Assembly: GCA_963663815.1 (NCBI GenBank) | Contig: OY760734.1 | Reading direction: 5' to 3' (one strand) | From: Vicinamibacterales bacterium | GTDB lineage: Bacteria; Acidobacteriota; Vicinamibacteria; Vicinamibacterales; UBA8438 | DNA: 64,000 nucleotides | Shown here: piece by piece, positions 4,756-62,456 of the stretch | Layout: each line of letters opens with the position of its first letter | Position numbering within the stretch: the first letter of the stretch is position 1 | The notes under the pieces: generated by a model | What the model saw: the letters and a program-made list of their open reading frames with translations, nothing else | The model's database searches: none | Told to the model about the DNA's origin: nothing | Position numbers and translations under genes: made by a program

Positions 4756-6071
4756 CCACTCTCCTCGCGTTCCTGTTCGTCCTCGGGGTGCTCGTCTTCG
4801 TGCACGAGCTGGGGCACTTTCTCGTCGCCCGGCATCACGGCGTCCGTGTCCTGACGTTCTCGCTCGGGTTCGGCCCGAAGATCCTGCAGACGAAGCGGGG
4901 CGACACGGTCTACTGCGTCAGCGCCATACCCCTCGGCGGCTACGTGAAGATGGCCGGCGAGACGGTCGAGGACAAGCGCGAGGGCCGGGACGACGAGTTC
5001 CTGTCCAAGACCAAGTGGCAGCGCTTCCAGGTCCTGATCGCCGGGCCCGCGATGAACGTCGTGCTCGCGGTGGTGGTCATGACCGTCGTGCTCCTGCAGG
5101 GGGCCCGGGTCCCCCTCTACGAGGAGGGGCCGCCGGTCATCGGGTCGGTGGCCGAGGACTCTCCCGCCGAAGACGCCGGCATGCTCCCCGGCGATCGCAT
5201 CCTGACCGTGGCGGGGCGGCCCGTCGACACGTGGGAAGAGCTGGTGCTCGCCGTCGTGGAGCGTCCGGACCGCGAGGTCGAGGTGTCGCTGCGGCGCGAC
5301 GGAGAGGTCCGGCGGCTGCGGGTGACCCCGGTGGGCCAGGGCAGGTACAACCTGGGCGATCTCGGCGTCGGACCCGATGTCTCGCCGGTGGTGGTCGCGT
5401 GGTCGTCGCAGGCCACCGCCGCCCGCGACGCCGGCATCGAGGTCGGCGACGCGATCGTGGCCGTCGATGGCCGGAGAGTCCAGCAGGAGTCGTTGATCGA
5501 AGCGATCAACGCCAGCGACGGCGCGCCCCTGACGCTCCAGGTTCGCCGCGGCGGCGAGAGCCGGGAGATCACCCTGGCCCCGGAGCAGGTCGGCGACGCG
5601 TGGATGATCGGGATCTCGTTCAGCCCGTTCGAGACGCGCGTCGTCGAGCCGGGGCTGTTCGAGGCGTTCACGCTCAGCCTCGAGCAGAACCTCGAATGGT
5701 CGCAGCTCATCTTCCGGACCCTGTGGGGGCTGCTGACGCGGGAGACCCCGGCGTCGCAGCTCGTGGGGCCGGTGGGCATCGCCCAGCTCTCCGGCGACGC
5801 GGCCCGGTTCGGCTGGGTGACGCTGTTCCAGCTGATGGCGATGATCAGCCTCAATCTCGGCATTCTGAACCTCCTGCCGATCCCGATCCTCGACGGCGGC
5901 CACATCACCGTCCTCGCGCTCGAGGGCATCGCCCGCCGGGAGTTCAGCGTGCGGTTGAAGGAACGGATGCTCCTCGCGGGCTTCGTGGTCCTCATGACCC
6001 TGATGGTGACGGTGATCTACAACGACCTGACACGCGTCGCGTGGATCGAGCGCCTGATGATCTGGCGCTAG
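4752..6071 (+). CDS. rseP: RIP zinc metalloprotease RseP (site-2 protease)
   Basis: ATG at 4752 inside the 4053..6071 frame. HELGHF (HExxH) in the first TM segment, PDZ-like middle part, and NLLPIPILDGGH near the C-terminus. The stop TAG (6069-6071) lies inside the repeat at 6068-6155. Confidence 0.9.
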   Translation: MTTLLAFLFVLGVLVFVHELGHFLVARHHGVRVLTFSLGFGPKILQTKRGDTVYCVSAIPLGGYVKMAGETVEDKREGRDDEFLSKTKWQRFQVLIAGPAMNVVLAVVVMTVVLLQGARVPLYEEGPPVIGSVAEDSPAEDAGMLPGDRILTVAGRPVDTWEELVLAVVERPDREVEVSLRRDGEVRRLRVTPVGQGRYNLGDLGVGPDVSPVVVAWSSQATAARDAGIEVGDAIVAVDGRRVQQESLIEAINASDGAPLTLQVRRGGESREITLAPEQVGDAWMIGISFSPFETRVVEPGLFEAFTLSLEQNLEWSQLIFRTLWGLLTRETPASQLVGPVGIAQLSGDAARFGWVTLFQLMAMISLNLGILNLLPIPILDGGHITVLALEGIARREFSVRLKERMLLAGFVVLMTLMVTVIYNDLTRVAWIERLMIWR

Positions 6072-6155
6072 GAGTCTGCGCCGTAGAACGGTGCAGACTC
6101 CTAGCAGGGTTGGTTGGGCGGCAATCGGAGCCGTAGGCGACGATTTCCGGGCTAG
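6068..6155 (+). repeat. Family-1 88-bp two-hairpin 'CTAG' repeat, copy 1
   Basis: CTAGGAGTCTGCGCCGTAGAACGGTGCAGACTCCTAGCAGGGTTGGTTGGGCGGCAATCGGAGCCGTAGGCGACGATTTCCGGGCTAG. It has a 17-bp-stem hairpin plus a second 8-bp-stem hairpin. Homologous copies lie at 15699, 19184 and 34665. Confidence 0.9.
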
Positions 6156-6276: not shown

Positions 6277-7779
6277 GTGTCGAGCCCGATCCGGACAGGA
6301 CCCGTGACGGCCGGGCCCGGGCCGAGGGCCGGGCCGGGGACGGCGCTGCGGGCGCTCCGCCGCGAGCTGCCTCCGACCGTTGGCCTCGCCGCGCCGATCG
6401 TGATGGCCGAGCTCGGGTGGATCGCGATGGGCATCGTCGACATCGCGATGGTCGGCCGCCTGGGGCCGGCCGCCATCGGGGCGGTGGGCGTGGGCAGCGT
6501 CCTCTGCTTCGCGGTGGTGGTGTTCGGCATCGGCATGCTGCTGGGGCTCGACCCCCTGGTGGCGCGGGCCCACGGCCGGCGGCGCCTCGACGCGTGCCGG
6601 CGGTGGCTCGTCCACGGGGCCGGCCTCGCGGTGGCCCTGGCCGCGCCGCTGACCCTCGCGGCCGGCGTGGTGGCCGCGACCCTCGACGCGTGGGGCATGG
6701 ACCCCGAGGTCCAACGGCTCGCCGGGCCCTACTTCGCGATCGTCCTGTGGAGCGTGCTGCCGCTGCTGCTCTACACCGCGTTCCGCCGCTACCTGCAGGC
6801 CATCGGCCTCGCCACCCGGGTCACGGCGGCCCTGATCAGCGCGAACGCCATCAACGCCGCCGCCAACTGGCTGCTCATCTTCGGCAACCTCGGCCTGCCC
6901 GCCCTCGGCGTCGACGGCGCGGCCTGGGCCACGGTCATCTCGCGCGCGTACCTGGCCGTGTTCCTCGCGGCGGCGATCCTGCGCCACGAGCGCCGCGCCG
7001 CCGCCCCCTGGCCGCGGCTGCGCTTCGAGCGCCGCCGCCTTCGCCGCCTCCTCGCGATCGGCCTGCCGGCGGCGGGGCAGGTGACCCTCGAGTTCGGGGT
7101 GTTCGCGGTCGTCACCGCCCTCGCGGGCCGCCTCGAGGCGGCCACCCTGGCCGCGCACCAGATCGTCCTCAACGTCGCCAGCGCGACGTTCATGGTGCCG
7201 CTGGGCGTGGGCGCGGCCGGCGCGGTCCGGGTGGGGCACGCGGTCGGCCGGCGCGACCCGTCCGGGGCCCGGCGGGCGGGCTGGGCCGCCCTCGCCCTCG
7301 GCGGGGGCTTCATGAGCATCGCCGCCCTGTTCTTCGTGCTCGCGCCGCATCCCATCCTGCGGCTGTTCACCACCGACCCGGCGGTGACCCGGGCCGGCGT
7401 GACGCTACTGCTCGTCGCCGCGGTCTTCCAGCTCTTCGACGGGCTGCAGGCGGTGGCGACGGGGGCGCTCCGGGGGCTGGGCGACACGCGGACGCCGCTG
7501 GTGTGCAACCTCGCCGGTCACTGGCTCATCGGCCTGCCGGTCGGCTACGTGCTCTGCTTCGTCGCGGGCTGGGGCATCGTCGGCCTGTGGGTGGGGTTGT
7601 CGATCGGGCTCGTCCTCGTGGGGGCGGCCCTCGTGGCGGCGTGGTGGTGGGCGACCGGCCCGCGCGGCGGCGCGGCGGCGCGCGACCGGCCCGCGGCGCT
7701 CGGAGCACCCGCTCTCGAATCGCCTGGGCCAGCCCCGTCTCGTCGTGCCCGGCCGTCAGCGGCCACCCGCGGCGCTTGA
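6277..7779 (+). CDS. MATE-family efflux transporter
   Basis: Polytopic protein with a typical MATE N-terminus (LRRELPPTVGLAAPIVMAELGWIAMGIVDIAMVGRLG) and a GALRGLGDTRTP motif. The start is uncertain: GTG 6277 sits behind GGAG, GTG 6304 is an alternative, and the ORF-track start at 6091 lies inside a repeat. The last ~25 codons run into the 117-bp tandem repeat. Confidence 0.8.
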   Translation: MSSPIRTGPVTAGPGPRAGPGTALRALRRELPPTVGLAAPIVMAELGWIAMGIVDIAMVGRLGPAAIGAVGVGSVLCFAVVVFGIGMLLGLDPLVARAHGRRRLDACRRWLVHGAGLAVALAAPLTLAAGVVAATLDAWGMDPEVQRLAGPYFAIVLWSVLPLLLYTAFRRYLQAIGLATRVTAALISANAINAAANWLLIFGNLGLPALGVDGAAWATVISRAYLAVFLAAAILRHERRAAAPWPRLRFERRRLRRLLAIGLPAAGQVTLEFGVFAVVTALAGRLEAATLAAHQIVLNVASATFMVPLGVGAAGAVRVGHAVGRRDPSGARRAGWAALALGGGFMSIAALFFVLAPHPILRLFTTDPAVTRAGVTLLLVAAVFQLFDGLQAVATGALRGLGDTRTPLVCNLAGHWLIGLPVGYVLCFVAGWGIVGLWVGLSIGLVLVGAALVAAWWWATGPRGGAAARDRPAALGAPALESPGPAPSRRARPSAATRGA

Positions 7780-8053
7780 GCTCGTCCGCCGCGTTGCCCG
7801 TGACCGGCCCGGGCATTCAGAGCACCCGCTCTCGAATCGCCTGGGCCGGCCCCGTCTCGTCGTGACCGCCCGTCAGCGGCCACCCCCGGCGCCTGAGCTC
7901 GGCCGCCGCGTTGCCCGTGACCGGCCCGGGCATTCAGAGCACTCGCTCCCGAATCGCCTGGGCCAGCCCCGCCTCGTCGTGACCGCCCGTCAGGGGCCAC
8001 CCGCAGCGCTTGAGCTCGGCCACCGCGTTGCCCATGACGACGGGGTGCCCGGC
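7703..8053. repeat. 117-bp tandem repeat x3 built from the 3' end of the HAD phosphatase gene
   Basis: Units at 7703-7819, 7820-7936 and 7937-8053 (the last is the real gene end). Each carries the last ~38 codons plus the TGA stop on the minus strand. The copies differ at roughly 10% of positions. Confidence 0.9.
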
Positions 8054-8776
8054 CAGCTCCAGCATGTCGAGGTCGTTCAGGTTGTCGCCGACCGCCATGA
8101 TCCCGGCCGGCGGCACGCCGCGGCGCGCCGCCCAGTCGCCGAGGGCGGCGCCCTTCGAGCAGCCCTCGGCGGTGACGTCGAGGAGCGAGAAGTCGCGCTG
8201 CTCGTACTCGGTCAGGGTGACGGTGAGGGTGCGGGCGCTCGGCAGCCCGCGCACGCGGCCGGCCAGCACCCGCATGTCGGCGACCCCGCCGGTGAACGCG
8301 ACCTGCACCGGGTCGTCGTCGAGCGCCCTCTCGAGGGGATCGACCCGCGTCATGTAGACGCGGTTGCGGTCGTAGTACCACCGCCGCTGCGGATGCGACC
8401 AGTCGATCCGCTCGTAGACGTACTGCCGGTCGTCCGGCCGGTCGAAGATGAGGGCGGCCCCCTCGCGGAACGGCCGGGTGTCGGCGACCAGCGATCGGGC
8501 GAGGCCGCGCGGCACGGGGCGGCGGGCGAGGGTCTCCCCCTCCGGTGTCTTGACCAGCGCGCCGTTGTTGACGATGAGGGTCACGGGGGTGCCCAGCCGT
8601 TCCGCGACCGGGCGGGCATGGTGGAACGCGCGGCCGGTGGCCAGCACGACCTCGATGCCGCGCGCGGCCGCGGCCTGCAGGGCGCGCCGGTTCGCGTCCG
8701 GTATGCGGCTCGCGGCGTCGAGCAGGGTGCCGTCGATGTCGACCGCGATGAGCCGAATCGGTGCCGGGTCCGGCAT
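7934..8776 (-). CDS. Cof-type HAD-IIB family hydrolase (sugar-phosphatase like)
   Basis: The C-terminal 280 aa of the 7934..11626 ORF, starting at MPDPAPIRLIAVDIDGTLL (DxDGT motif I). Also ATGR and GDNLNDLDML (motif IV). The start ATG shares one base with the ispG stop. Confidence 0.85.
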   Translation of the reverse strand: MPDPAPIRLIAVDIDGTLLDAASRIPDANRRALQAAAARGIEVVLATGRAFHHARPVAERLGTPVTLIVNNGALVKTPEGETLARRPVPRGLARSLVADTRPFREGAALIFDRPDDRQYVYERIDWSHPQRRWYYDRNRVYMTRVDPLERALDDDPVQVAFTGGVADMRVLAGRVRGLPSARTLTVTLTEYEQRDFSLLDVTAEGCSKGAALGDWAARRGVPPAGIMAVGDNLNDLDMLELAGHPVVMGNAVAELKRCGWPLTGGHDEAGLAQAIRERVL

Positions 8777-10011
8777 CACCCCGCCGGCTTCTCCGTGTAG
8801 CGCCGCGCGACGTAGTCGTCGACGAGCCGGCGGAACGCCTCGGCGAGCTCGTCGTACGAGCCGCGCAGGGTCGTCGCGTGCCGGCCGTCCACGTAGACCG
8901 GGCAGGTGGGCTCCTCGCCGGTGCCGGGCAGGCTGATGCCGATGTTCGCGGCCTTCGACTCGCCGGGGCCGTTGACCACGCAGCCCATCACCGCGACCCG
9001 CATTTCCTCGACCCCCGCGTGGCGGGTCTTCCACACCGGCATCATGTCGCGCACGTACTGCTGAATCCGCTCCGCCAGCTCCTGGAACGTGGTGCTGGTG
9101 GTGCGGCCGCATCCGGGGCAGGCGGTGATGCTCGGGGCGAACGACCGCAGCCCCAGCGACTGCAGCAGCTCGCACGCCGCGTACACCTCCTCGCGCCGGT
9201 CGCCGCCCGGCCGCGGCGTCAGCGAGACCCGGACGGTGTCGCCGATGCCCGCGGCGAGGAGCACCCCCATCGCCGCCGCCGACCAGATCTGCCCCTTCAT
9301 GCCCATGCCCGCCTCGGTCAGGCCGAGGTGCAGGGGCTGGGTGGTCTCGGCCGCGAGGCGGCGGTAGATGGCGATGAGGTCGGGGGGCGACGACACCTTG
9401 CACGAGATCACGATGCGGTCGGGGCCGAGCCCCGCGTCGATGGCCAGCGCCGTCGACTCCACGGCCGAGATCACCATGCAGTCGTTGACGATCTCCTCCG
9501 AGCTGCGGCCGAGCTGCCGGTCGGTGTTCTCCTGCATCCGGGCCATCACCAGGTCCTGGTTCAGGGACCCGCCGTTCACCCCGATGCGCACCGGCTTGCC
9601 GTTGTCCCGGGCAATCCTGCAGATCGTCGCGAAGTGGTCGTCGCGCCGGGCCCCGGTGCCGACGTTGCCGGGGTTGATGCGGTACTTGTCGAGGGCCCGG
9701 GCGCATGCCGGATGCCGCGACAGCAGGAGGTGTCCGTTGTAATGGAAGTCGCCGATGAGCGGCGCCCGGCAGCCGCGGTCGTTCATGCGCTGCCTGATCT
9801 CGGGGACCGCCGCCGCCGCGGCCGGGTTGTTGACGGTCACCCGCACCAGCTCCGAGCCGGCCTCGGCCAGCTCGACGCACTGCGCGGCCGTCGCCGCCGC
9901 GTCGGCGGTGTCGGTGATGGTCATCGACTGCACGACGATGGGGGCGCCGCCGCCGATCTGGACGTCGCCCACGCGGACGCCGGTGGTGCGGTGCAGTCTG
10001 ACGGTGCTCAT
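8776..10011 (-). CDS. ispG: 4-hydroxy-3-methylbut-2-en-1-yl diphosphate synthase (flavodoxin)
   Basis: Start taken at MSTVRLHRTTG.. (ATG 10011). PIVVQSMT, RVTVNN, the ACPGCGRT cluster-binding motif and GCVVNGPGE are present. Confidence 0.92.
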   Translation of the reverse strand: MSTVRLHRTTGVRVGDVQIGGGAPIVVQSMTITDTADAAATAAQCVELAEAGSELVRVTVNNPAAAAAVPEIRQRMNDRGCRAPLIGDFHYNGHLLLSRHPACARALDKYRINPGNVGTGARRDDHFATICRIARDNGKPVRIGVNGGSLNQDLVMARMQENTDRQLGRSSEEIVNDCMVISAVESTALAIDAGLGPDRIVISCKVSSPPDLIAIYRRLAAETTQPLHLGLTEAGMGMKGQIWSAAAMGVLLAAGIGDTVRVSLTPRPGGDRREEVYAACELLQSLGLRSFAPSITACPGCGRTTSTTFQELAERIQQYVRDMMPVWKTRHAGVEEMRVAVMGCVVNGPGESKAANIGISLPGTGEEPTCPVYVDGRHATTLRGSYDELAEAFRRLVDDYVARRYTEKPAG

Positions 10012-10131: not shown

Positions 10132-11454
10132 TCAGCGGGCCTCGGCGGTCCGCGGGCGCCGGCGGCGCATTCCCCGAAGGGTGGCGCGCGCGGCTGCCAC
10201 CGCCTCGTCGACGTCGGCGGGGGTGTGGGCGGCCGAGAGGAACCAGCCCTCGAACTGGGAGGGCGGCGGGTAGACGCCGCGCGACAGCATGCCGCGGAAG
10301 AACCGCGCGTAGGCGGCGGTGTCGGCGGCGGTGGCGCTCTCGTAGTCGCTCACCGGCGCCGCCGTGAAGAACGGCGTCAGCACCGAGCCGAGGACGTTCA
10401 CCTGCAGGTCGATCCCGGCTTCCTCCGCCGCGTCGGCGAGGCCGGCCGCGAGGCGGGCTCCCAGCCGGTCCAGGCGCGCGTACAGATTCGGCGACAGCTT
10501 CGACAGGGCCCAGCCGCCGGCGGCCATCGCGAGGGGGTTGCCGGACAGGGTGCCGGCCTGGTACACCGGCCCCGCCGGCGCCACCTGCTCCATCAGGTCG
10601 CGCCGCCCCCCGTAGGCGCCGACCGGCAGCCCCCCGCCGATGATCTTGCCGAGGCAGGTGAGGTCGGGGCGGACCCCGAACCGCTCCTGCGCGCCGCCGG
10701 GGCCGGCGCGGAAGCCCGAGATCACCTCGTCGAAGATCAGGATCGCGCCGTGCTCGTCGCACAGGGCCCGCAGCCCCTCGAGGAACCCGGGCTCGGGGGG
10801 CACGACGCCCATGTTGCCGGCCACGGGCTCCACGATCAGCGCCGCCACCCGATCTCGGTGCCGGCGGAACAGCCGGTCGACCGATCCGAGGTCGTTGTAG
10901 CGCGCGACGAGGGTCTCGGCCGCCACCGCCGGCGATACCCCCGGGCTCGTGGGGACTCCGAGGGTGGTGGCCCCGGACCCCGCCTGCACGAGAAAGGGGT
11001 CGGCATGGCCGTGATAGCACCCCGCGAACTTGATCACCCGGCTCCGCCCCGTTGCGGCCCGCGCGAGCCGCAGCGCGCTCATCGCCGCCTCGGTGCCCGA
11101 GTTCACGAACCGCACCCGCTCGAGCGACGGCATGAGCTCCCGCACCGCCGTCCCCAGCTCCACCTCCGCCGCCGTCGGGGCGCCGAAGCTCGTGCCCTGC
11201 TTCGCGGCCGCGGCCAGCACCCGGGTCAGCCCGGCCGGGGCGTGCCCGTGGATGAGGGGCCCCCACGACATGACGAAGTCGACGTAGGAACGGCCGTCCT
11301 CGTCCTCGATGCGGGCGCCGCTCGCCCGCCGGATGAACGGCGGCGTGCCCCCGACGGCGGAGAAGGCGCGCACGGGGCTGTCGACCCCGCCCGGCAGAAT
11401 CCGCTTGGCGCGGGCGAACAGGCGGGCGGACTGCTTGCGGCCGGCGGTGTTCAT
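10132..11454 (-). CDS. hemL: Glutamate-1-semialdehyde 2,1-aminomutase
   Basis: Start at MNTAGRKQSARLFARAKRILPGGVDSPVRAF (ATG 11454). The aminotransferase class-III pattern continues through FDEVISGFR and LGKIIGGGLPVGAYGG. Confidence 0.92.
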   Translation of the reverse strand: MNTAGRKQSARLFARAKRILPGGVDSPVRAFSAVGGTPPFIRRASGARIEDEDGRSYVDFVMSWGPLIHGHAPAGLTRVLAAAAKQGTSFGAPTAAEVELGTAVRELMPSLERVRFVNSGTEAAMSALRLARAATGRSRVIKFAGCYHGHADPFLVQAGSGATTLGVPTSPGVSPAVAAETLVARYNDLGSVDRLFRRHRDRVAALIVEPVAGNMGVVPPEPGFLEGLRALCDEHGAILIFDEVISGFRAGPGGAQERFGVRPDLTCLGKIIGGGLPVGAYGGRRDLMEQVAPAGPVYQAGTLSGNPLAMAAGGWALSKLSPNLYARLDRLGARLAAGLADAAEEAGIDLQVNVLGSVLTPFFTAAPVSDYESATAADTAAYARFFRGMLSRGVYPPPSQFEGWFLSAAHTPADVDEAVAAARATLRGMRRRRPRTAEAR

Positions 11455-11504
11455 TATGGCGGGGAACGATATCACGGGGCGGCCGGCCGCTTCGCAGCCG
11501 CGGC

Positions 11505-11650
11505 AGGGTCCCGCGGCAGGCGACCGGCGACGCATCCCGCCTGACGGTGCCGTTTCTCGGTCCCCTGTGCCCGGCAAGTTCCTCGTCACGCCTTGTCACG
11601 CAAGCGCCTTGCCGGTCTCGGTGCAACGCCCGGGTTTCGCCACGAGCGGC
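11505..11650 (-). repeat. Family-2 rod-like element, degenerate third copy
   Basis: GACGCATCCCGCCTGAC and CCTCGTCACGCCTTGTCAC..GCC...CTCGGTGCAACGC...TT.CGCCACGAGC align with 43088-43247 and 62212-62456. The AT-rich central part is replaced. The ends are approximate. Confidence 0.5.
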
Positions 11651-11808
11651 GCGGGTTGATCGGTCGGATGCGGAATGCCAGAATGTCGTGTTCGGATCTG
11701 GAACCTGCGCCGCGGCACGGTGCAGACGGCGGTGAGATCGCCTGGGCGGAACCGGCGTCGCAGGCGGCGATTTTCAGGGCCGGGGAGGCTCTCGACGGGA
11801 GACGACCG

Positions 11809-13511: not shown

Positions 13512-13698
13512 GAGCCGCTCGGATCGCCTCGATCCGCGCCGGGATTGCCGTCAGGCGCGCTCCTTGCCGTTCCGGCGGTCGCGCAGCCGCTCGACAATCG
13601 CCTCGATCCGCGCCGGGATTGCCGTCAGGCGCGCTCCTTGCCGTTCCGGCGGTCGCGCAGCCGCTCGACGATCGCCTCGAGCAGCGCCGGCACCGTCG
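13512..13698. repeat. 74-bp tandem repeat (about 2.5 units) built from the 3' end of hemD
   Basis: TCAGGCGCGCTCCTTGCCGTTCCGGCGGTCGCGCAGCCGCTCGAC(A/G)ATCGCCTCGA... occurs at 13551 and 13625, with a partial unit at 13512-13550. The unit contains the last ~15 codons and the stop of hemD. Confidence 0.9.
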
Positions 13699-14530
13699 AC
13701 TCGGCCGGCATGATGGTGGTGGCGATGCCCAGCCGGCCCGCGGTCTCGGCGGTCACCGGGCCGATGCACGCGACCTCGATCGGCCGCAGCAGGTCCGCCG
13801 CCTGCTCTCCGCCGATCGCCCGCGCGAAGTTCTGTACGCTGGACCCGCTCGTGAACGTGACCACGTCGACCCCGCGCTCGCGCAGCATCCCTCGGATGTC
13901 CGGGCCCTCGCGGTCGAGGTCGGCCGGCACCGTCCGATAGGCCGTGACCGCGGTCACCGTCGCCCCGGCCCGCCCGAGCTCCGTCGCCAGCAGGTCGCGG
14001 GCCAGGTCCCCGCGGGGCAGGAGCACCCGGGCCCCCGTCAGATCGCCCCGCCCACGCAGCGCCGCGAGGACGCCCTCGGCCCGGTACTCGCCCGGCACCA
14101 GGTCCACCCGCAACCCGTGGCCGGTCAGGGCCTCGGCGGTGGCCGCCCCGACCGCGCAGAGACGCACGCCTTCGAGGCCGCGGACGCCGCCGGCGCCCTC
14201 CTGCAGGTGCTTCACGAGGCGGGCCACCGCGTTGACGCTCGTGAACACGACCCAGTCGAACGTCCCGATCCGGGCGCACGCGGCGTCGAGGGGGCCCGGG
14301 TCGTCGGGGGGCGCGATCGCGATGGTCGGCACCTCGATGGCCTCGGCCCCCAAGCCCTCGAGCCGGGCCACCATCCCCACCGCCTGGGCCTTCGCGCGCG
14401 TCACGACCACCCGCACTCCGGCGAGGGGAAGGGTTGCGGACCCCGTGCGAGCCCGGATCACTGCTTCGTCTTCTCCCGCGTGCGACGCGTCTCGACAATC
14501 TCCGGCTGCCGCCGGATGCCATCCTAGCAT
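13625..14530 (-). CDS. hemD: Uroporphyrinogen-III synthase
   Basis: C-terminal part of the 13625..16015 ORF: LAGVRVVVTRA...LE.LGAE.IE.PTI....D.VVFTS.NAV...LP....L...L...GA.V..V.AY. Start at ATG 14530, or GTG 14461 as an alternative. Confidence 0.8.
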   Translation of the reverse strand: MLGWHPAAAGDCRDASHAGEDEAVIRARTGSATLPLAGVRVVVTRAKAQAVGMVARLEGLGAEAIEVPTIAIAPPDDPGPLDAACARIGTFDWVVFTSVNAVARLVKHLQEGAGGVRGLEGVRLCAVGAATAEALTGHGLRVDLVPGEYRAEGVLAALRGRGDLTGARVLLPRGDLARDLLATELGRAGATVTAVTAYRTVPADLDREGPDIRGMLRERGVDVVTFTSGSSVQNFARAIGGEQAADLLRPIEVACIGPVTAETAGRLGIATTIMPAESTVPALLEAIVERLRDRRNGKERA

Positions 14531-14668
14531 CGATTCCGGGTAGAGTAATGGGAGTCTGCGGTGAGACGGTGGGGGGCCTTTGCCGCCGCTTGCCCGGTGC
14601 GTCCGGCTGAGCGGAGGTGGGAATCGCCGGGCAGCGCTACCCCCGAACGAGGTCCGGGCGTACCGACC

Positions 14669-15658: not shown

Positions 15659-15698
15659 TGGCCCGCTCCGCGCCTGCGCGGTCAAGGCATCGTCGGCG

Positions 15699-15786
15699 CT
15701 GGCCCGCCCATCGTCGCCTTCGGCTCCGCTGGGCGCCCAACCAACCCTGCCAGGAGTCTGCACCGTTCTACGGCGCAGACTCCTAG
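15699..15786 (-). repeat. Family-1 88-bp 'CTAG' repeat, copy 2
   Basis: Near-identical to 19184-19271 and 34665-34752. The outer CTAG is mutated to CTGG. It lies downstream of hemC in the sense orientation. Confidence 0.9.
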
Positions 15787-15893
15787 CCCGCATCGTTGGG
15801 CCACGGGGCGAAGTCGCGCAACCGAGAGACTCCCGCCGGCGGCCGATCGGATCCGGGGGCGTCGCCGGTGTCCCGGATGGGGCGGGAGCACCG

Positions 15894-16883
15894 TCACCCG
15901 GCGTTCGGGACCTCGCCGTGCCCGGCCGCGGCGCGTTGCGCGGCCTCCAGAATGGGGCCGGCGCCGTCCGCGAGCAGCCCGTGGGCGACGGCGGCGCCCA
16001 GCGCCTGCGCCGCATCGGCAGGCATCGCGGCCTCGCGGCAGAGGCGTTGCGCCCCGTCGAGGGAGGCCACCATCGCCCGCAGGCGCAGGCGGTCGCCGCC
16101 GTGCTCGGCGAGGGCGCCGACGGGCACCTGGCACCCGCCGCCGAGGGCCGCGACGACGGCGCGCTCGGCCGTGAACGCGGCGCGGGTCGGCGGGTCGTCG
16201 ATGGCCGCGAGGGCGTCGCCGGTGTCCGCGTCGCCGGCGCGGGTCTCGACGGCGACGATGCCCTGCCCGGGGGCGGGCAGGCAGACGTCCGAGTCGATCG
16301 GCATCGAGATGCGGTGGGCGAGGCCCAGCCGCTCCAGCCCCGCCGCCGCGAGCACGAGCAGGTCGTAGGCGCCCGCGTCCAGCTTGCGGAGACGGGTGCC
16401 GACGTTGCCGCGCACGAGCCGGAACTCCGCGCGGGGCCACGCCCGCCGCAGCTGCGCCACCCGTCGCACGCTCCCGCTGCCCACGCGGGGGGCGGGGCCG
16501 CCCTCGCCCCCGCCGTTCCCGCCCGCCGTCAGAGCCGCCGGCAGATGTTCCGATCCCGCCGGCAGCACGACCGCGTCCCGCGGGTCCGCCCGGGGCAGGA
16601 CCGCGGCGATCGCGAGCCCGTCCGGCAGCTCCGCCGGCATGTCCTTGGCGCTGTGCACGGCGAGGTCGACGTCGCCGCGGGCGAGCGCCTGCTCGATCTC
16701 CTTGACGAAGACCCGCTTGCCCCCGACCTTCGACAGGTTGGCCTCGCGCAGCCGGTCGCCGGTGGTGGCGATGACCACCAGCTCGCACTCGCGCCCGCTT
16801 CGGCCGCGCACCCGGGCCGCCACCGCCTTGGCCTGCCAGAGGGCGAGCTCGCTCCCGCGGGTGCCGAGCCTCAGCCGGTTCAC
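15894..16883 (-). CDS. hemC: Hydroxymethylbilane synthase (porphobilinogen deaminase)
   Basis: The last 329 aa of the 15894..20387 ORF. GTG start (VNRLRLGTRGSELALWQA) overlaps the hemA stop as GTGA. KGGKRVFVKEIE, DLAVHSAKD and PAPGQG are present. Confidence 0.9.
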   Translation of the reverse strand: MNRLRLGTRGSELALWQAKAVAARVRGRSGRECELVVIATTGDRLREANLSKVGGKRVFVKEIEQALARGDVDLAVHSAKDMPAELPDGLAIAAVLPRADPRDAVVLPAGSEHLPAALTAGGNGGGEGGPAPRVGSGSVRRVAQLRRAWPRAEFRLVRGNVGTRLRKLDAGAYDLLVLAAAGLERLGLAHRISMPIDSDVCLPAPGQGIVAVETRAGDADTGDALAAIDDPPTRAAFTAERAVVAALGGGCQVPVGALAEHGGDRLRLRAMVASLDGAQRLCREAAMPADAAQALGAAVAHGLLADGAGPILEAAQRAAAGHGEVPNAG

Positions 16884-19183: not shown

Positions 19184-19271
19184 CTAGCCCGCCCATCGTC
19201 GCCTTCGGCTCCGCTGGGCGCCCAACCAACCCTGCCAGGAGTCTGCACCGTTCCACGGCGCAGACTCCTAG
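19184..19271 (-). repeat. Family-1 88-bp 'CTAG' repeat, copy 3
   Basis: Full copy. Its first CTAG (sense orientation) contains the TAG stop of the VWA gene (19270-19268). Confidence 0.9.
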
Positions 19272-33973: not shown

Positions 33974-34231
33974 TCAGGCGGTGTCGTGCTTCGCGATCCA
34001 CTCGCGAAGCGCGTCGTTCATCCGGGTCTGCCAACCGGGGCCGCCAGCCTTGAAGTGGTCGAGCACGTCCTGTGAAAGACGGATCGTGGTCGACAGCTTC
34101 GGATGCGCGGTCCGCGGCCGGCCGCGGCGAACGGTCGCCCGCGCCAACCGCTCCGGCCAGCCATCCGTGGAGAGGTCCGGAGCGGTATCCGCGTCAAAAC
34201 CGCGGGCCGTAGTGCGCTCGTTCCCGCTCAT
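33974..34231 (-). CDS. brnA: BrnA-type antitoxin
   Basis: 85 aa. C-terminal RHH-like block STTIRLSQDVLDHFKAGGPGWQTRMNDALREWI, typical of BrnA partners of DUF497 toxins. Confidence 0.75.
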   Translation of the reverse strand: MSGNERTTARGFDADTAPDLSTDGWPERLARATVRRGRPRTAHPKLSTTIRLSQDVLDHFKAGGPGWQTRMNDALREWIAKHDTA

Positions 34232-34240
34232 TGGCTCTCC

Positions 34241-34453
34241 TCATGCTGATGATCCGATACGCGCCGCTTCGCGGTGTACCACCATGATCCCGTCGAGGAA
34301 CCCGATGGTGATGAAGCGGTCCTCTCCATAGTCCTGCCGGTCATCCTCGACGGTCAGCGTGGCACCCGCAAGCAGTTCCTCGGCCCGCGCCATGTCCAGC
34401 CCTCTGGCTTCGAGGGTGGCCGCGCGCTTCGCGGCATCGAACTCGACGCGCAT
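34241..34453 (-). CDS. brnT: BrnT (DUF497) toxin, apparently frameshifted near the 3' end
   Basis: MRVEFD..K...L..RG......E.L......ED.R.DYGE.RFITIG matches the DUF497 pattern. The conserved tail (IISMRRANERE...) is readable only in the -1 frame, down to a TGA at 34196-34194. Confidence 0.7.
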   Translation of the reverse strand: MRVEFDAAKRAATLEARGLDMARAEELLAGATLTVEDDRQDYGEDRFITIGFLDGIMVVHREAARIGSSA

Positions 34454-34664: not shown

Positions 34665-34752
34665 CTAGCCCGCCCATCGTCGCCTTCGGCTCCGCTGGGC
34701 GCCCAACCAACCCTGCTAGGAGTCTGCACCGTTCTACGGCGCAGACTCCTAG
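34665..34752 (-). repeat. Family-1 88-bp 'CTAG' repeat, copy 4
   Basis: Full copy. Its first CTAG (sense orientation) contains the TAG stop of atpF (34751-34749). Confidence 0.9.
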
Positions 34753-41091: not shown

Positions 41092-41229
41092 CTCCAGGCC
41101 ATCGTACCACGGCCGTCGGAAGCTCGCCGGGGCGAACGCCCGCCAGTCGTCGCCTGCGCTCCGCTCGCGCCCGGCCAACCCTGCAGTCGTCCACGCCGTC
41201 CTGCGGCGCGGCCTCCTGGCCGGCCAGTC

Positions 41230-41319: not shown

Positions 41320-41334
41320 TGCGCCGCGAGGATG

Positions 41335-41376
41335 GCCGCCCAACAAGTCCTGCCGGGAGTCCGCGCCGTTCTACGG
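41335..41376 (-). repeat. Family-1 repeat, truncated/diverged copy
   Basis: GCCGCCCAACAAGTCCTGCCGGGAGTCCGCGCCGTTCTACGG aligns with the ...GCGCCCAACCAACCCTGCCAGGAGTCTGCACCGTTCTACGG part of the full copies. The murJ TAG stop lies in its loop. Confidence 0.6.
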
Positions 41377-43059
41377 CTCCCCTCGCCCTCCGTCCTCGGC
41401 CGACGAGGGCCGCCCCGCGCCCGGCCGGCCCAGGATCTGCGCGCGGACCTCGTCGAGCTCGGCGATGCCGAGGAGCCGGGCGGCGGCGGTCAGCACCACC
41501 AGGCCCAGCATGATCTCGCCGCCGAGGACGAGCGCCTCGATCAAGAGGCCGCCCTCCGCCGCCAGGTTCCCGGCCATGCCCTCGGCCGCGGCGACCGCCG
41601 CGCCCATGATCCCGGCCGCGAGGCAGGTCCGCGCCAGGCGGTCCGCGAGGCGGCGGGCGTCGATGCCCCCGAGCCGGTGGTGCAGCAGCACGAGCAGGAC
41701 GCCCGCGTTGAGCCAGGACGCGAGGGACGTGCCCAGCGCGAGACCGGGATACCCCATGACCCGCACGAGGGCGAGGTTCAGCCCGACGTTGACCGCGACG
41801 GTGGCGACGCCGACCCCGGCCGGGGTCAGGCTGTTGCCGAAGGCGTAGAACACCGGGGCGGTCAGCCGCACCGCCGCGTAGCCGACGATGCCCGGGGCAT
41901 AGAACACCAGGGCTCGCGCGGTCGCGGGAGTGTCGGCGGCGGTGAACTCGCCGTGCTCGAAGACGAGCCGAACGACGGGGGTCGCGAGGACCGCGAGGCC
42001 CACCGCCGCCGGCACCATCACCGCGAGCATGAGGCGCAACCCGCGGAAAACGGCGTTCCGCACCGCCGCGAGGTCGCCGGCCGCGGCGTGGCGGGACACC
42101 GCGGGCAGCGTCACGGTGGCTATCGACACGCCGAACACGCCCAGCGGGAGGTACATCAGGCGGAACGCCATCGTAAGCCAGGTGACGGCGCCGGTGCCCT
42201 CGCCGGTGGCGAGGTGGGTGTTGACGAGCAGGTTCACCTGCAGCGCCGCCCCCGCCACCGTCGCCGGCCCCATCAGCCCCGCGACCTCGCGCAGAGTCCG
42301 GTCGGCCGGATCCAGGGCGGGCCGCCAGCGGAACCCCTCGCGGCGCAGCGCCCACCACTGCGCCGCGATCTGCCCCGCCCCGCCGAGCAGCACCGCGGCC
42401 GCGACCGCCGCGATGGGGTCGACGCCGCCCTCGGGCATCAGGGGCACGACGACGAGGGTGCCCGCGATGAGGCAGACGTTGTAGGCGGCAGGCGACAGCG
42501 CGGGGACGAAGAACCGCCGCAGCGAGTTGAGCATGCCCATGCAGGCGGCGGCGATCGCCACCAGGGTGAAGAACGGCAGCACGATGCGGGTCAGCTGCAC
42601 GGTCAGCTCGAACTTGCCGGGGACTTCCTGGTAGCCGGCGGCGAACAGGCGGGTCAGGGGCTCGGCGAAGACGATGCCGGCCACCACGATGCCGCCGGTG
42701 ATGACCGCGAGGGCGTTGATGAGCTGGACCCCCAGCCGCCACGCCGCGTCGCGGCCCCCGCGGGTCAGGCGCCGCGTGAAGACGGGCACGAAGGCGGCGT
42801 TCATCGCTCCTTCCGCGAAGAGCTCGCGCAGCAGGTTGGGAATGCGCAGGGCTACGAGGAAGGCGTCCATCCGGTCGCCCGCCCCGAAGCGGTAGGCGAG
42901 GGCCTGGTCCCGCACCAGTCCCAGCACCCGGCTCGTCATGGTGGCGAGGCTCACGATGCCGGCCGAGCGGGTGAGGCCGTCGCGCGTGGAGTTGGGGGGC
43001 GTCATCGTCGGGGACGCGTCGAGGCGCCGCGCCTCGCGGGCCTCGGCGCTGCGCGCCAT
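41371..43059 (-). CDS. murJ: Lipid II flippase MurJ
   Basis: Start ATG 43059 (GGGAG 12 nt upstream; ATG 43005 is an alternative). SAGIVSLATMTSRVLGLVRDQ..A..FGAG...DAF..A.R.PN.LR.LFAEGA and about 14 TM segments. Confidence 0.88.
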   Translation of the reverse strand: MARSAEAREARRLDASPTMTPPNSTRDGLTRSAGIVSLATMTSRVLGLVRDQALAYRFGAGDRMDAFLVALRIPNLLRELFAEGAMNAAFVPVFTRRLTRGGRDAAWRLGVQLINALAVITGGIVVAGIVFAEPLTRLFAAGYQEVPGKFELTVQLTRIVLPFFTLVAIAAACMGMLNSLRRFFVPALSPAAYNVCLIAGTLVVVPLMPEGGVDPIAAVAAAVLLGGAGQIAAQWWALRREGFRWRPALDPADRTLREVAGLMGPATVAGAALQVNLLVNTHLATGEGTGAVTWLTMAFRLMYLPLGVFGVSIATVTLPAVSRHAAAGDLAAVRNAVFRGLRLMLAVMVPAAVGLAVLATPVVRLVFEHGEFTAADTPATARALVFYAPGIVGYAAVRLTAPVFYAFGNSLTPAGVGVATVAVNVGLNLALVRVMGYPGLALGTSLASWLNAGVLLVLLHHRLGGIDARRLADRLARTCLAAGIMGAAVAAAEGMAGNLAAEGGLLIEALVLGGEIMLGLVVLTAAARLLGIAELDEVRAQILGRPGAGRPSSAEDGGRGEP

Positions 43060-43087: not shown

Positions 43088-43247
43088 ACAGCCCGTGGTG
43101 GAAGTCCCCGCTGCATTCGAGCGACGATGCATCCCGCCTGACTGCGTTGTTCGTCGGTTGCATATGCCCAATATGCGCCCTCCTCACGCCTTGTCAGCCG
43201 GGCGCCTCGCCGCTCTCGGTGCAACGCGGGGTTCCACCACGGGCTGT
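43088..43247 (-). repeat. Family-2 ~160-nt rod-like inverted-repeat element, copy a
   Basis: Terminal 16-bp inverted repeat ACAGCCCGTGGTGGAA / TTCCACCACGGGCTGT. The interior pairs almost continuously and has an apical GCATAT-n5-ATATGC hairpin. It fills the ychF-murJ spacer. The strand is assigned from G-U versus A-C asymmetry. Confidence 0.85.
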
Positions 43248-62211: not shown

Positions 62212-62456
62212 AGGAGCCCGTGGGGGAATCCCCGCTGCATTCGAGCGGCGATGCATCCCGCCTGCGCCCGGCAAGCGTCGCCTGCGGCTCCGATTGCCGC
62301 CCAACCACGCCTGCCGGGAGTCTGCGCCGTGACCGGCACAGACGCCCGGTTGCGTTGTTCGTCGGTTGCATATGGCCAATATGCGCCCTCCTCACGCCTT
62401 GTCAGGCGGGCGCCTCGCCGCTCTCGGTGCAACGCGGGGTTCCCCCACGGGCTCCT
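62212..62456 (-). repeat. Family-2 rod-like element, copy b (interrupted by an 85-bp insert)
   Basis: Collinear with 43088-43247 apart from 6 small differences and an insertion at 62265-62349. Terminal inverted repeat AGGAGCCCGTGGGGGAA / TTCCCCCACGGGCTCCT. Confidence 0.85.
62265..62349 (-). repeat. Family-1-like element nested inside family-2 copy b
   Basis: Diverged homolog of the 88-bp repeat (..GGCTCCGATTGCCGCCCAACCACGCCTGCCGGGAGTCTGCGCCGTGACCGGCACAGACGCCCGG). Both hairpins are retained, and the flanking tetranucleotide is CCGG-like instead of CTAG. Confidence 0.7.

Follow-up and report, generated by a model that had tools for sequence, protein, structure and literature searches.

The 64,000-nt stretch of contig OY760734.1 (assembly GCA_963663815.1) of a Vicinamibacterales bacterium, hereafter the window, has a G+C content of 72% and contains dispersed copies of an 88-nt, CTAG-bounded repeat that folds into two hairpins joined by a short linker. 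This two-hairpin CTAG repeat is abundant within the Vicinamibacterales (Acidobacteriota), among the matches listed, and is best filed among the small non-autonomous bacterial repeats that resemble REPs (repetitive extragenic palindromes) or MITEs (miniature inverted-repeat transposable elements). It is probably a selfish interspersed repeat of this order, with a unit of 84 nt plus a shared CTAG, moved in trans by an enzyme from elsewhere. The repeat was previously uncatalogued, and its hosts are widespread but poorly studied soil bacteria.

An earlier note, made from the letters of the window, had suggested a census of the 88-mer and a scan against Rfam. Related stretches were found by a degenerate 21-mer from hairpin 1, taking one genome per species, which resulted in at least 102 matching stretches of 8 kb (designated here by L-numbers). 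Nearly all of the 21-mer matches, among those listed, were in metagenome-assembled genomes (MAGs) of Vicinamibacterales, and two of the matching MAGs showed ~90% identity to the window over conserved genes, although the window belongs to neither. An nhmmer profile, seeded with the four full window copies and iterated once, was run on the window and the 102 loci and gave 154 full and 54 partial matches. In total, 176 substantial copies, representing 145 units, were present in 97 of the 102 fetched stretches, each of the 97 belonging to a Vicinamibacterales MAG, and the census returned an abundant family; real copies were absent from four matches in other, lower-GC taxa (L005, L032, L058, L059). 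The Rfam scan of the window gave a tRNA as its only match at gathering score, and no family for the CTAG repeat.

Insertion sites and tandem arrays

Sites with and without the element were identified by comparison of orthologous and paralogous positions. One site is empty in L011, where it reads GGACCAC CGAG CATG, and carries one or two units in L063 and L060; another is empty in L093 and filled in L004. The rseP gene of the window has an element at its end, and rseP of L040 ends in an identical CGC TAG without the element there, a copy of another subfamily being located 102 nt past the stop. The murJ-rhomboid spacer of L078, orthologous to that of the window, holds a copy in opposite orientation. 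Within the window, the copy at 62263-62349 is inserted in a second, unrelated repeat, the paralogue of which at 43100-43245 is uninterrupted. A CTAG-like tetranucleotide is present once in empty and twice in filled sites, which fits a target-site duplication and, just as well, an element-borne 3' CTAG placed after a CTAG target.

Adjacent copies share one tetranucleotide, giving a period of 84 nt, and adjacent pairs are head-to-tail in 31 of 31 cases (inverted in none). As several of these pairs mix different subfamilies, they arose by independent insertion, and local duplication does not account for them. With each insertion a CTAG-like tetranucleotide gains a single 84-nt unit, neither more nor less, and beside existing copies the element inserts in one orientation only. 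In two stretches (L013:339-426 and L023:7347-7434) a copy was inserted into the GT(A/G)G of another copy's hairpin-1 loop, and the loop tetranucleotide can thus also act as a target. The 84-nt arrays could serve as strain-typing markers.

Copies in the window

The following copies and parts of the element were identified in the window.

6068-6155 (+): full 88-nt copy; the rseP TAG stop (6069-6071) lies within the first CTAG; hairpin-2 subfamily CGGCAAT/ATTTCCG
6068-6104 (+): hairpin 1 of this copy, with a 17-bp stem, a 3-nt loop and one G-T pair (G13-T25); both stem feet are CTAG, and the loop reads GTAGAAC
6105-6118 (+): conserved G/T-rich linker CAGGGTTGGTTGGG; TTG at 6110-6112 is the counterpart of the integration core of an IS110-family insertion sequence in related genomes
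6119-6149 (+): hairpin 2, with a variable, compensated basal stem, a tandem G-A/A-G step and the invariant apex CGGAGCC-GNA-GGCGACG
6150-6155 (+): 3' tail GGCTAG; the final CTAG is common to the next unit in tandem arrays
11700-11777 (+): weak candidate remnant (E 2.6e-4)
15699-15786 (-): full copy; the hemC stop (15894-15896) is 107 nt upstream, and a spurious open reading frame (ORF), 15682-16788, reads through the copy
19184-19271 (-): full copy; the first CTAG contains the TAG stop (19268-19270) of the VWA-domain gene
34665-34752 (-): full copy, identical to the family consensus; the first CTAG contains the atpF TAG stop (34749-34751)
41138-41218 (-): degenerate copy (E 1e-7), overlapping the predicted 5' end of a rhomboid gene
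41331-41377 (-): partial copy (E 7e-8; model positions 13-59), in which the TAG of the hairpin-1 loop serves as the murJ stop (41371-41373)
62263-62349 (-): diverged copy (E 1e-14), nested in the second, unrelated repeat; the empty paralogous site is at 43100-43245

The four full copies were recovered by nhmmer at E ~1e-25, in agreement with the earlier note, and its diverged and partial copies were found again at 62263-62349 and 41331-41377. The 37 nt of hairpin 1 matched with 0-2 mismatches at 6068 (+), 15750-15786 (-), 19235-19271 (-) and 34716-34752 (-), when 100 shuffles gave a chance expectation of none. A further possible copy that had been proposed at 14551-14571 has only ~11 nt in common with the element and is unsupported; the copies at 41138-41218 and, more weakly, 11700-11777 had been missed.

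Of the six upstream partners named earlier, rseP, the VWA-domain gene, atpF, murJ and tRNA-Met were confirmed by Pfam scans and a codon-usage gene caller, whereas the supposed adjacency to hemC did not hold, the stop at 15894 being 107 nt away. The spacer between hemC and this copy was considered as a decayed copy, and was not convincing as one. The ORF that crosses the copy (15682-16788) is without family match. The repeat creates spurious long ORFs of this kind, and knowledge of it improves annotation.

At 33974-34453 (-), directly downstream of the atpF copy, there is a BrnA-type antitoxin ORF, and a small ORF upstream of it may be the toxin; both have a lower G+C content at third codon positions than the neighbouring genes.

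Hairpins and subfamilies

Both hairpins fold as had been described, hairpin 1 with its single G-T pair and hairpin 2 with a basal stem around GCC-GNA-GGC, including the tandem G-A/A-G step. The default RNAalifold consensus on the gapped alignment was a meaningless structure, and explicit pair counts were used instead. Over 108 distinct copies, 92% of the cells were paired in the two hairpins as drawn, against 34-41% when the partners were slid by one to three columns. The apex of hairpin 2 is invariant, with G-N-A as its loop in 87 of the 108 copies, and the basal stem occurs in the subfamilies CGCCCAG/ATGGGCG, CGCCAAG/ATTGGCG, CGGCAAT/ATTTCCG and CGG(T/C)GAG/CTCTCCG. The two compensatory stem changes seen earlier among window copies are real (CG 66 and GC 33 at one pair; CG 39, AU 36 and GC 21 at the other), and they are subfamily markers. 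As the covariation of hairpin 2 lies between subfamilies, it indicates that the stem is maintained, but does not distinguish RNA from single-stranded DNA. Tandem sheared G-A pairs, like GNA triloops with a closing C-G pair, form stable structures in RNA and DNA alike. Predicted folding energies are -53.4 (sense) and -44.6 kcal/mol (antisense) for RNA, and -30.9 (sense) and -26.6 (antisense) for DNA.

The asymmetry of G-U over A-C pairs, on which the earlier note had drawn, is present (100:60 without the consensus pair G13-T25) but weak and position-dependent, being reversed at several positions. The largest part of the excess is a CTAG...CTGG variant, which is equally explained by keeping the TAG stop while its partner base drifts to G. 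An extra helix possible in the sense strand only (positions 44-48 with 83-87) was pairable in 94% and was set aside as uninformative: it consists of G-U pairs, and any transition at a G-U pair preserves pairing.

Three copies (L072:6041-6143, L075:4327-4428, L080:4087-4190) form a subfamily with an extra small hairpin (GCGCCGCCTCCGGAGGAGGCGC) inside the hairpin-1 loop, and in L021 and L070 the apex of hairpin 2 is enlarged. Recurrent junctions in L021/L070 and in L090/window were considered as a second insertion sequence, and proved to be hairpin-2 variants or orthologous sequence instead.

CTAG target and stop codons

The window contains 14 CTAG tetranucleotides where base composition predicts 161 (~11-fold depletion), and nine of the 14 are inside copies of the element. 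Outside copies, there are five sites only, at 14524, 24489, 35595 (the atpB stop), 44383 and 56796. In three of the full window copies, out of four, the upstream gene (rseP, VWA, atpF) ends in the TAG of the first CTAG, and over the family a flanking stop codon is inside the element at ~43% of the sites. This CTAG target, by which flanking stop codons come to be placed inside the element, had been left unmentioned in the earlier note. In 50 units the stop codon is located in the 5' part, namely at positions 2-4 in 35 of them and, where CTAG had become CCAG, at the loop TAG in 15; in 14 units it is in the 3' CTAG, on the other strand.

Position 1 of the element is C in 94% of the copies, and the only GTAG is that of the hairpin-1 loop. 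Where the upstream stop is at positions 2-4, position 1 is C in 33 of 35 cases, whereas the preceding base is C in 36 of 151 element-free TAG stops; it is therefore CTAG that is targeted, and not TAG in general. The same 33 of 35 rule out an NTAG target, oriented by the stop codon, as the cause of the orientation bias reported below. Because CTAG is depleted ~11-fold, the tolerated CTAG sites are mostly C-TAG gene ends, and so the stop codon is found inside hairpin 1 or in the 3' CTAG. The repeat is in this respect a clean example of extreme tetranucleotide avoidance funnelling a mobile element onto stop codons.

The four TAGs of the element (positions 2, 17, 35 and 86) share a reading frame, and the 84-nt period of the arrays is divisible by three. 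Mutation of the first TAG to CAG would let translation continue five codons further, to the in-frame loop TAG. The repeat moves or extends real gene ends in this way, with a five-residue tail when CTAG becomes CCAG.

Orientation relative to genes

All six clear copies in the window are sense with respect to the upstream gene or tRNA, as had been noted; the one + copy is in a + gene block, and each of the five - copies likewise matches its local genes. Extended to the family, the statement that copies are always sense fails, as ~76% are. Between genes of the same direction, 66 units were sense and 21 antisense, and after merging of sites by common flanks 55 were sense and 17 antisense (p = 8e-6), so that the random orientation which the earlier note had counted against its own reading was not seen in these independent contexts. 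Stop codons, after clustering of the flanks, were at the 5' end in 44 and at the 3' end in 13 cases (p = 5e-5). The 115 classified independent sites comprised 72 same-direction, 28 convergent and 15 divergent gene contexts.

Pairs of elements within one 8-kb stretch had the same orientation in 44 and opposite orientation in 27 cases, and where the genes were opposite the element pairs were opposite in seven of eight. The bias (~3:1) therefore follows gene direction, not replichore, and the 44:27 pairs with their tracking of genes argue against lagging-strand-specific behaviour of the IS200/IS605 kind. Of the two options given in the earlier note, the mobile element was right in kind, its strand-specific IS200/IS605 form being disfavoured.

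The bias most likely comes from an insertion preference linked to transcription, or from selection on which end abuts the stop codon. Antisense copies may be lost to selection more often, or the machinery that inserts the element may sense transcription or flanking bases. Should the gene-sense bias be mechanistic and not selective, it would point to a coupling of insertion to transcription, which is not known for small repeats of bacteria. As a source of the bias, a required RNA function is less likely.

Such a function is the core of the proposal that the element is a 3'-untranslated RNA module, i.e. an mRNA-stabilising or U-tract-less terminating hairpin after the stop codon, kept in sense orientation by selection. 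The sense bias itself speaks for it, both in the independent same-direction contexts (55:17) and in copies off stop codons (31:13), as do the better folding of the sense RNA (by ~9 kcal/mol), the consensus pair G13-T25, which is never A-C, and the under-representation of copies between divergent genes (15 of 115 classified independent sites). REPs elsewhere are known to stabilise mRNA (PMC3733652, PMC6006769). However, a quarter of the copies in same-direction contexts are antisense, 15-16 copies lie between divergent genes, the G-U excess is weak and the extra G-U-rich helix uninformative, and both the presence/absence differences and the tandem arrays are unexpected for a selected signal. 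Neither a U tract nor a terminator-like site was found at the copies between 5000 and 21000 of the window; GC-rich sequence follows the copies, and no Rfam family was matched.

The rate of decay bears directly on this proposal. Orthologous copies in three species are 81-86% identical, when the flanking 300 nt of coding sequence are 91-96% and the third codon positions of the upstream gene 91-93% identical. The copies thus change faster than the third codon positions next to them, which speaks against strong selection on single copies; their decay is roughly neutral and no slower than that of weakly constrained sites, a pattern closer to a selfish repeat than to a required signal. A role of single copies as RNA is not supported, and the RNA module as a general explanation is unlikely.

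Proposed mobilising enzyme

For the selfish repeat, the mover would be encoded elsewhere in the genome, once, and act in trans. It would most likely be a single-strand transposase of the HUH type, whether REP-associated tyrosine transposase (RAYT)-like, class 3 TnpA-Y1-like or rolling-circle. This type is favoured by the two different, imperfect end hairpins, the tetranucleotide target, the head-to-tail arrays, the lack of terminal inverted repeats and the small size of the unit, which would hardly allow a double-stranded circle, and in addition by elimination of other types. After insertion at CTAG, often the stop codon of a gene end, copies have diversified into subfamilies in which compensatory change preserves hairpin 2, and they then decay.

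Several points weigh against this explanation. A regular-expression search for HUH and Y motifs in six frames gave no matches in the 102 loci and the window, so that the earlier statement of no RAYT or TnpA gene in the window holds and extends, by motif, to the related loci. The genes flanked by inverted copies were all housekeeping genes (Pfam on ten copy-flanked genes), and a longer element with the same two ends was not found among the partial matches. The two hairpins are unlike each other, when IS200/IS605 ends are usually alike, and hairpin 1 starts at the element terminus with no room for an IS608-style guide tetranucleotide. The sense bias persists off stop codons, as given above, which makes an RNA-level or transcription-linked effect possible; and CTAG is palindromic, so that the target alone explains neither the orientation bias nor the head-to-tail rule. 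Finally, the census is a sample of 8-kb pieces among the matches listed, and not of whole genomes.

A bolder and doubtful variant is that the 84-nt unit is moved by an undescribed, orientation-specific recombination, which would use a palindromic CTAG core yet read the direction of transcription (e.g. from the displaced non-template strand) and plant hairpins on stop codons, with the same element serving an IS110 (bridge-RNA) recombinase as its natural programmed target.

A classical cut-and-paste MITE of a DDE transposon of IS5 or IS630 type, targeting CTAG and duplicating CTAG or TA, was also considered. IS630 and IS5 prefer CTAG, and here CTAG is at both ends, once in empty and twice in filled sites, and is the target in preference to NTAG. 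Apart from CTAG, though, the ends of the element are unrelated: terminal inverted repeats are absent, the 5' end GAGTCTGCGCC bearing no relation to the reverse-complemented 3' end CCCGCCCATCG. A symmetric target with symmetric ends would give both arrangements of neighbours, against the 31 of 31 head-to-tail pairs observed, and no parent insertion sequence with these ends was present among the partial matches. An origin of this type is accordingly rather improbable.

IS110-family insertion sequence in the linker

Recurrent partial matches led to an IS110-family insertion sequence (IS) of 1,779 bp, encoding a 429-residue protein with the domains DEDD_Tnp_IS110 and Transposase_20. Four copies were identified, all in genome OY761475.2 (L089:1737-3515, L094, and two in tandem in L055), and IS junctions were present in three further genomes (L012, L067, L068). 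The four copies are 99-100% identical from ACGCTCACGG to GAATTTCACGG, and the half-elements that bracket them belong to different hairpin-2 subfamilies and have diverged hairpin 1 sequences. Between IS and element the break is sharp, with a CAA core on either side. When the IS is taken out together with one CAA, an intact linker, CCCAAC-CAA-CCCTG, is restored, from which it follows that the IS integrated into pre-existing elements. The IS integrates in one orientation at CCCAAC-CAA-CCCTG, the element linker being its specific landing site, and is not the parent of the element. The repeat is thereby a natural target for an IS110-family recombinase of the bridge-RNA type.

The non-coding ends of the IS contain AACCAA, AGCAGGG and CCCAACC, which match or complement the target and may be candidate guide segments of a bridge RNA. 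An Rfam scan of the IS returned nothing relevant. In L055:3780-7520, the junction of the tandem IS copies is at an internal site of the left end, GAAACCAA|ACTGACC. This site is similar to the target, and the arrangement looks like the IS integrating into the DNA for its own putative guide.

Our initial reading of the 88-mer, as a MITE built from the ends of an IS110-family IS, was dropped after aligning the IS copies, since the true IS ends are inside the linker. Recombination of the IS110 type would moreover need an 84-bp double-stranded circle, which is physically unfavourable. That the element is a miniature deletion derivative of the 1.8-kb IS (hairpin 2 as left end, hairpin 1 as right end), moved by its recombinase and bridge RNA, is thus very improbable in spite of the bracketing of full IS copies by the two halves of the element, the domains of the encoded protein and the precedent of the MITE-like, IS110-associated MITEPpu9 (PMC12288879), as near-identical IS interiors lie between halves of different subfamilies, with a sharp break at CAA and a linker restored on removal.

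Comparison with known repeats

In behaviour, REPs and their bacterial interspersed mosaic elements (BIMEs) with RAYT are the closest relatives of the element. They are likewise high-copy, GC-rich extragenic hairpins without coding capacity, mostly downstream of genes, and their GTAG termini, or more generally a terminal xTAG, often supply the TAG stop of the flanking ORF (PMC3733652); they are also favoured landing sites of IS110-family elements such as ISPpu9 and its relatives (PMC12288879). The tag of the element, however, is CTAG inside the stem, when that of REPs is GT[AG]G at 0-2 nt 5' of the hairpin foot. The element is an 84-88-nt composite of two unrelated hairpins and a linker, and not a palindrome of 20-40 nt; its neighbours are strictly head-to-tail, whereas REPINs (REP doublets forming hairpins) and BIMEs are inverted pairs; and no RAYT was found for it in the 102 loci and the window. 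It therefore differs from REPs in the GT[AG]G foot, the short single palindrome and the inverted pairs.

In Acidobacteria and Planctomycetes, atypical hairpins of high copy number, with a CnGA foot on the 5' side, flank the class 3 TnpA-Y1 genes; there are ~600 such hairpins in Solibacter usitatus (Quentin et al. 2018, PMC6006769). The element shares the phylum with these REPtron-like systems, and has CGGA directly 5' of its GCC-GNA-GGC mini-hairpin. The resemblance is of four bases only and compared by description, and no class 3 gene was seen near any copy; by this analogy, class 3 TnpA-Y1 may be regarded as a lead to the mobilising enzyme.

Palindrome-associated transposable elements (PATEs), which derive from IS200/IS605, similarly lack terminal inverted repeats, carry an imperfect hairpin at either end, have a tetranucleotide where they are inserted, and insert in an orientation-specific manner. 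The present element differs in that its orientation follows genes and not the replication strand, its hairpins differ from each other and hairpin 1 begins at the terminus; neither a TnpA partner (102 loci and window) nor a TnpB partner was found.

Mycobacterial interspersed repetitive units (MIRUs) of Mycobacterium tuberculosis are also intergenic, within operons, oriented with transcription and tandem with a period that is a multiple of three. They overlap the upstream stop codon, to be compared with one orthologous copy of the element kept in three species (L011:1349-1432, L060:4285-4372, L063:4643-4730), where it exactly spans the gap from the stop codon (in the 5' CTAG) to the next ATG (directly after the 3' CTGG). 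The element differs in occurring at hundreds of sites, mostly as single units, in its strong hairpins and in having no general coupling to downstream starts.

MITEPpu9 and ISPpu9 of Pseudomonas putida resemble the present case as a small non-coding repeat tied to an IS110-family element, with the IS landing in repeats (PMC12288879); here, in contrast, the IS uses the repeat as a target, and the repeat does not consist of IS ends.

Other repeats in the window

The second, unrelated repeat is ~146 nt long and on the - strand, located at 43100-43245, 62224-62453 and 11503-11629 of the window, and is also present in L007, L037, L081, L067, L030 and L074. It is found just upstream of (-)-strand starts, i.e. 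those of murJ, a zinc-ribbon/coiled-coil gene and the gene at 10132-11475. An Rfam scan of this repeat gave no match. Its copy at 62224-62453 contains the nested CTAG-family copy, and this filled version has spread as well, since L040 and L041 carry the same composite.

Two tandem repeats were observed in addition. At 7695-8045, a 117-nt unit occurs three times with 84-92% identity, and the array covers the 3' ends of both the MatE gene and the convergent gene 7934-8779 (-). At 13523-13670, between the hemB start and the next gene, there are two 74-nt units, the 99% identity of which suggests a very recent duplication.

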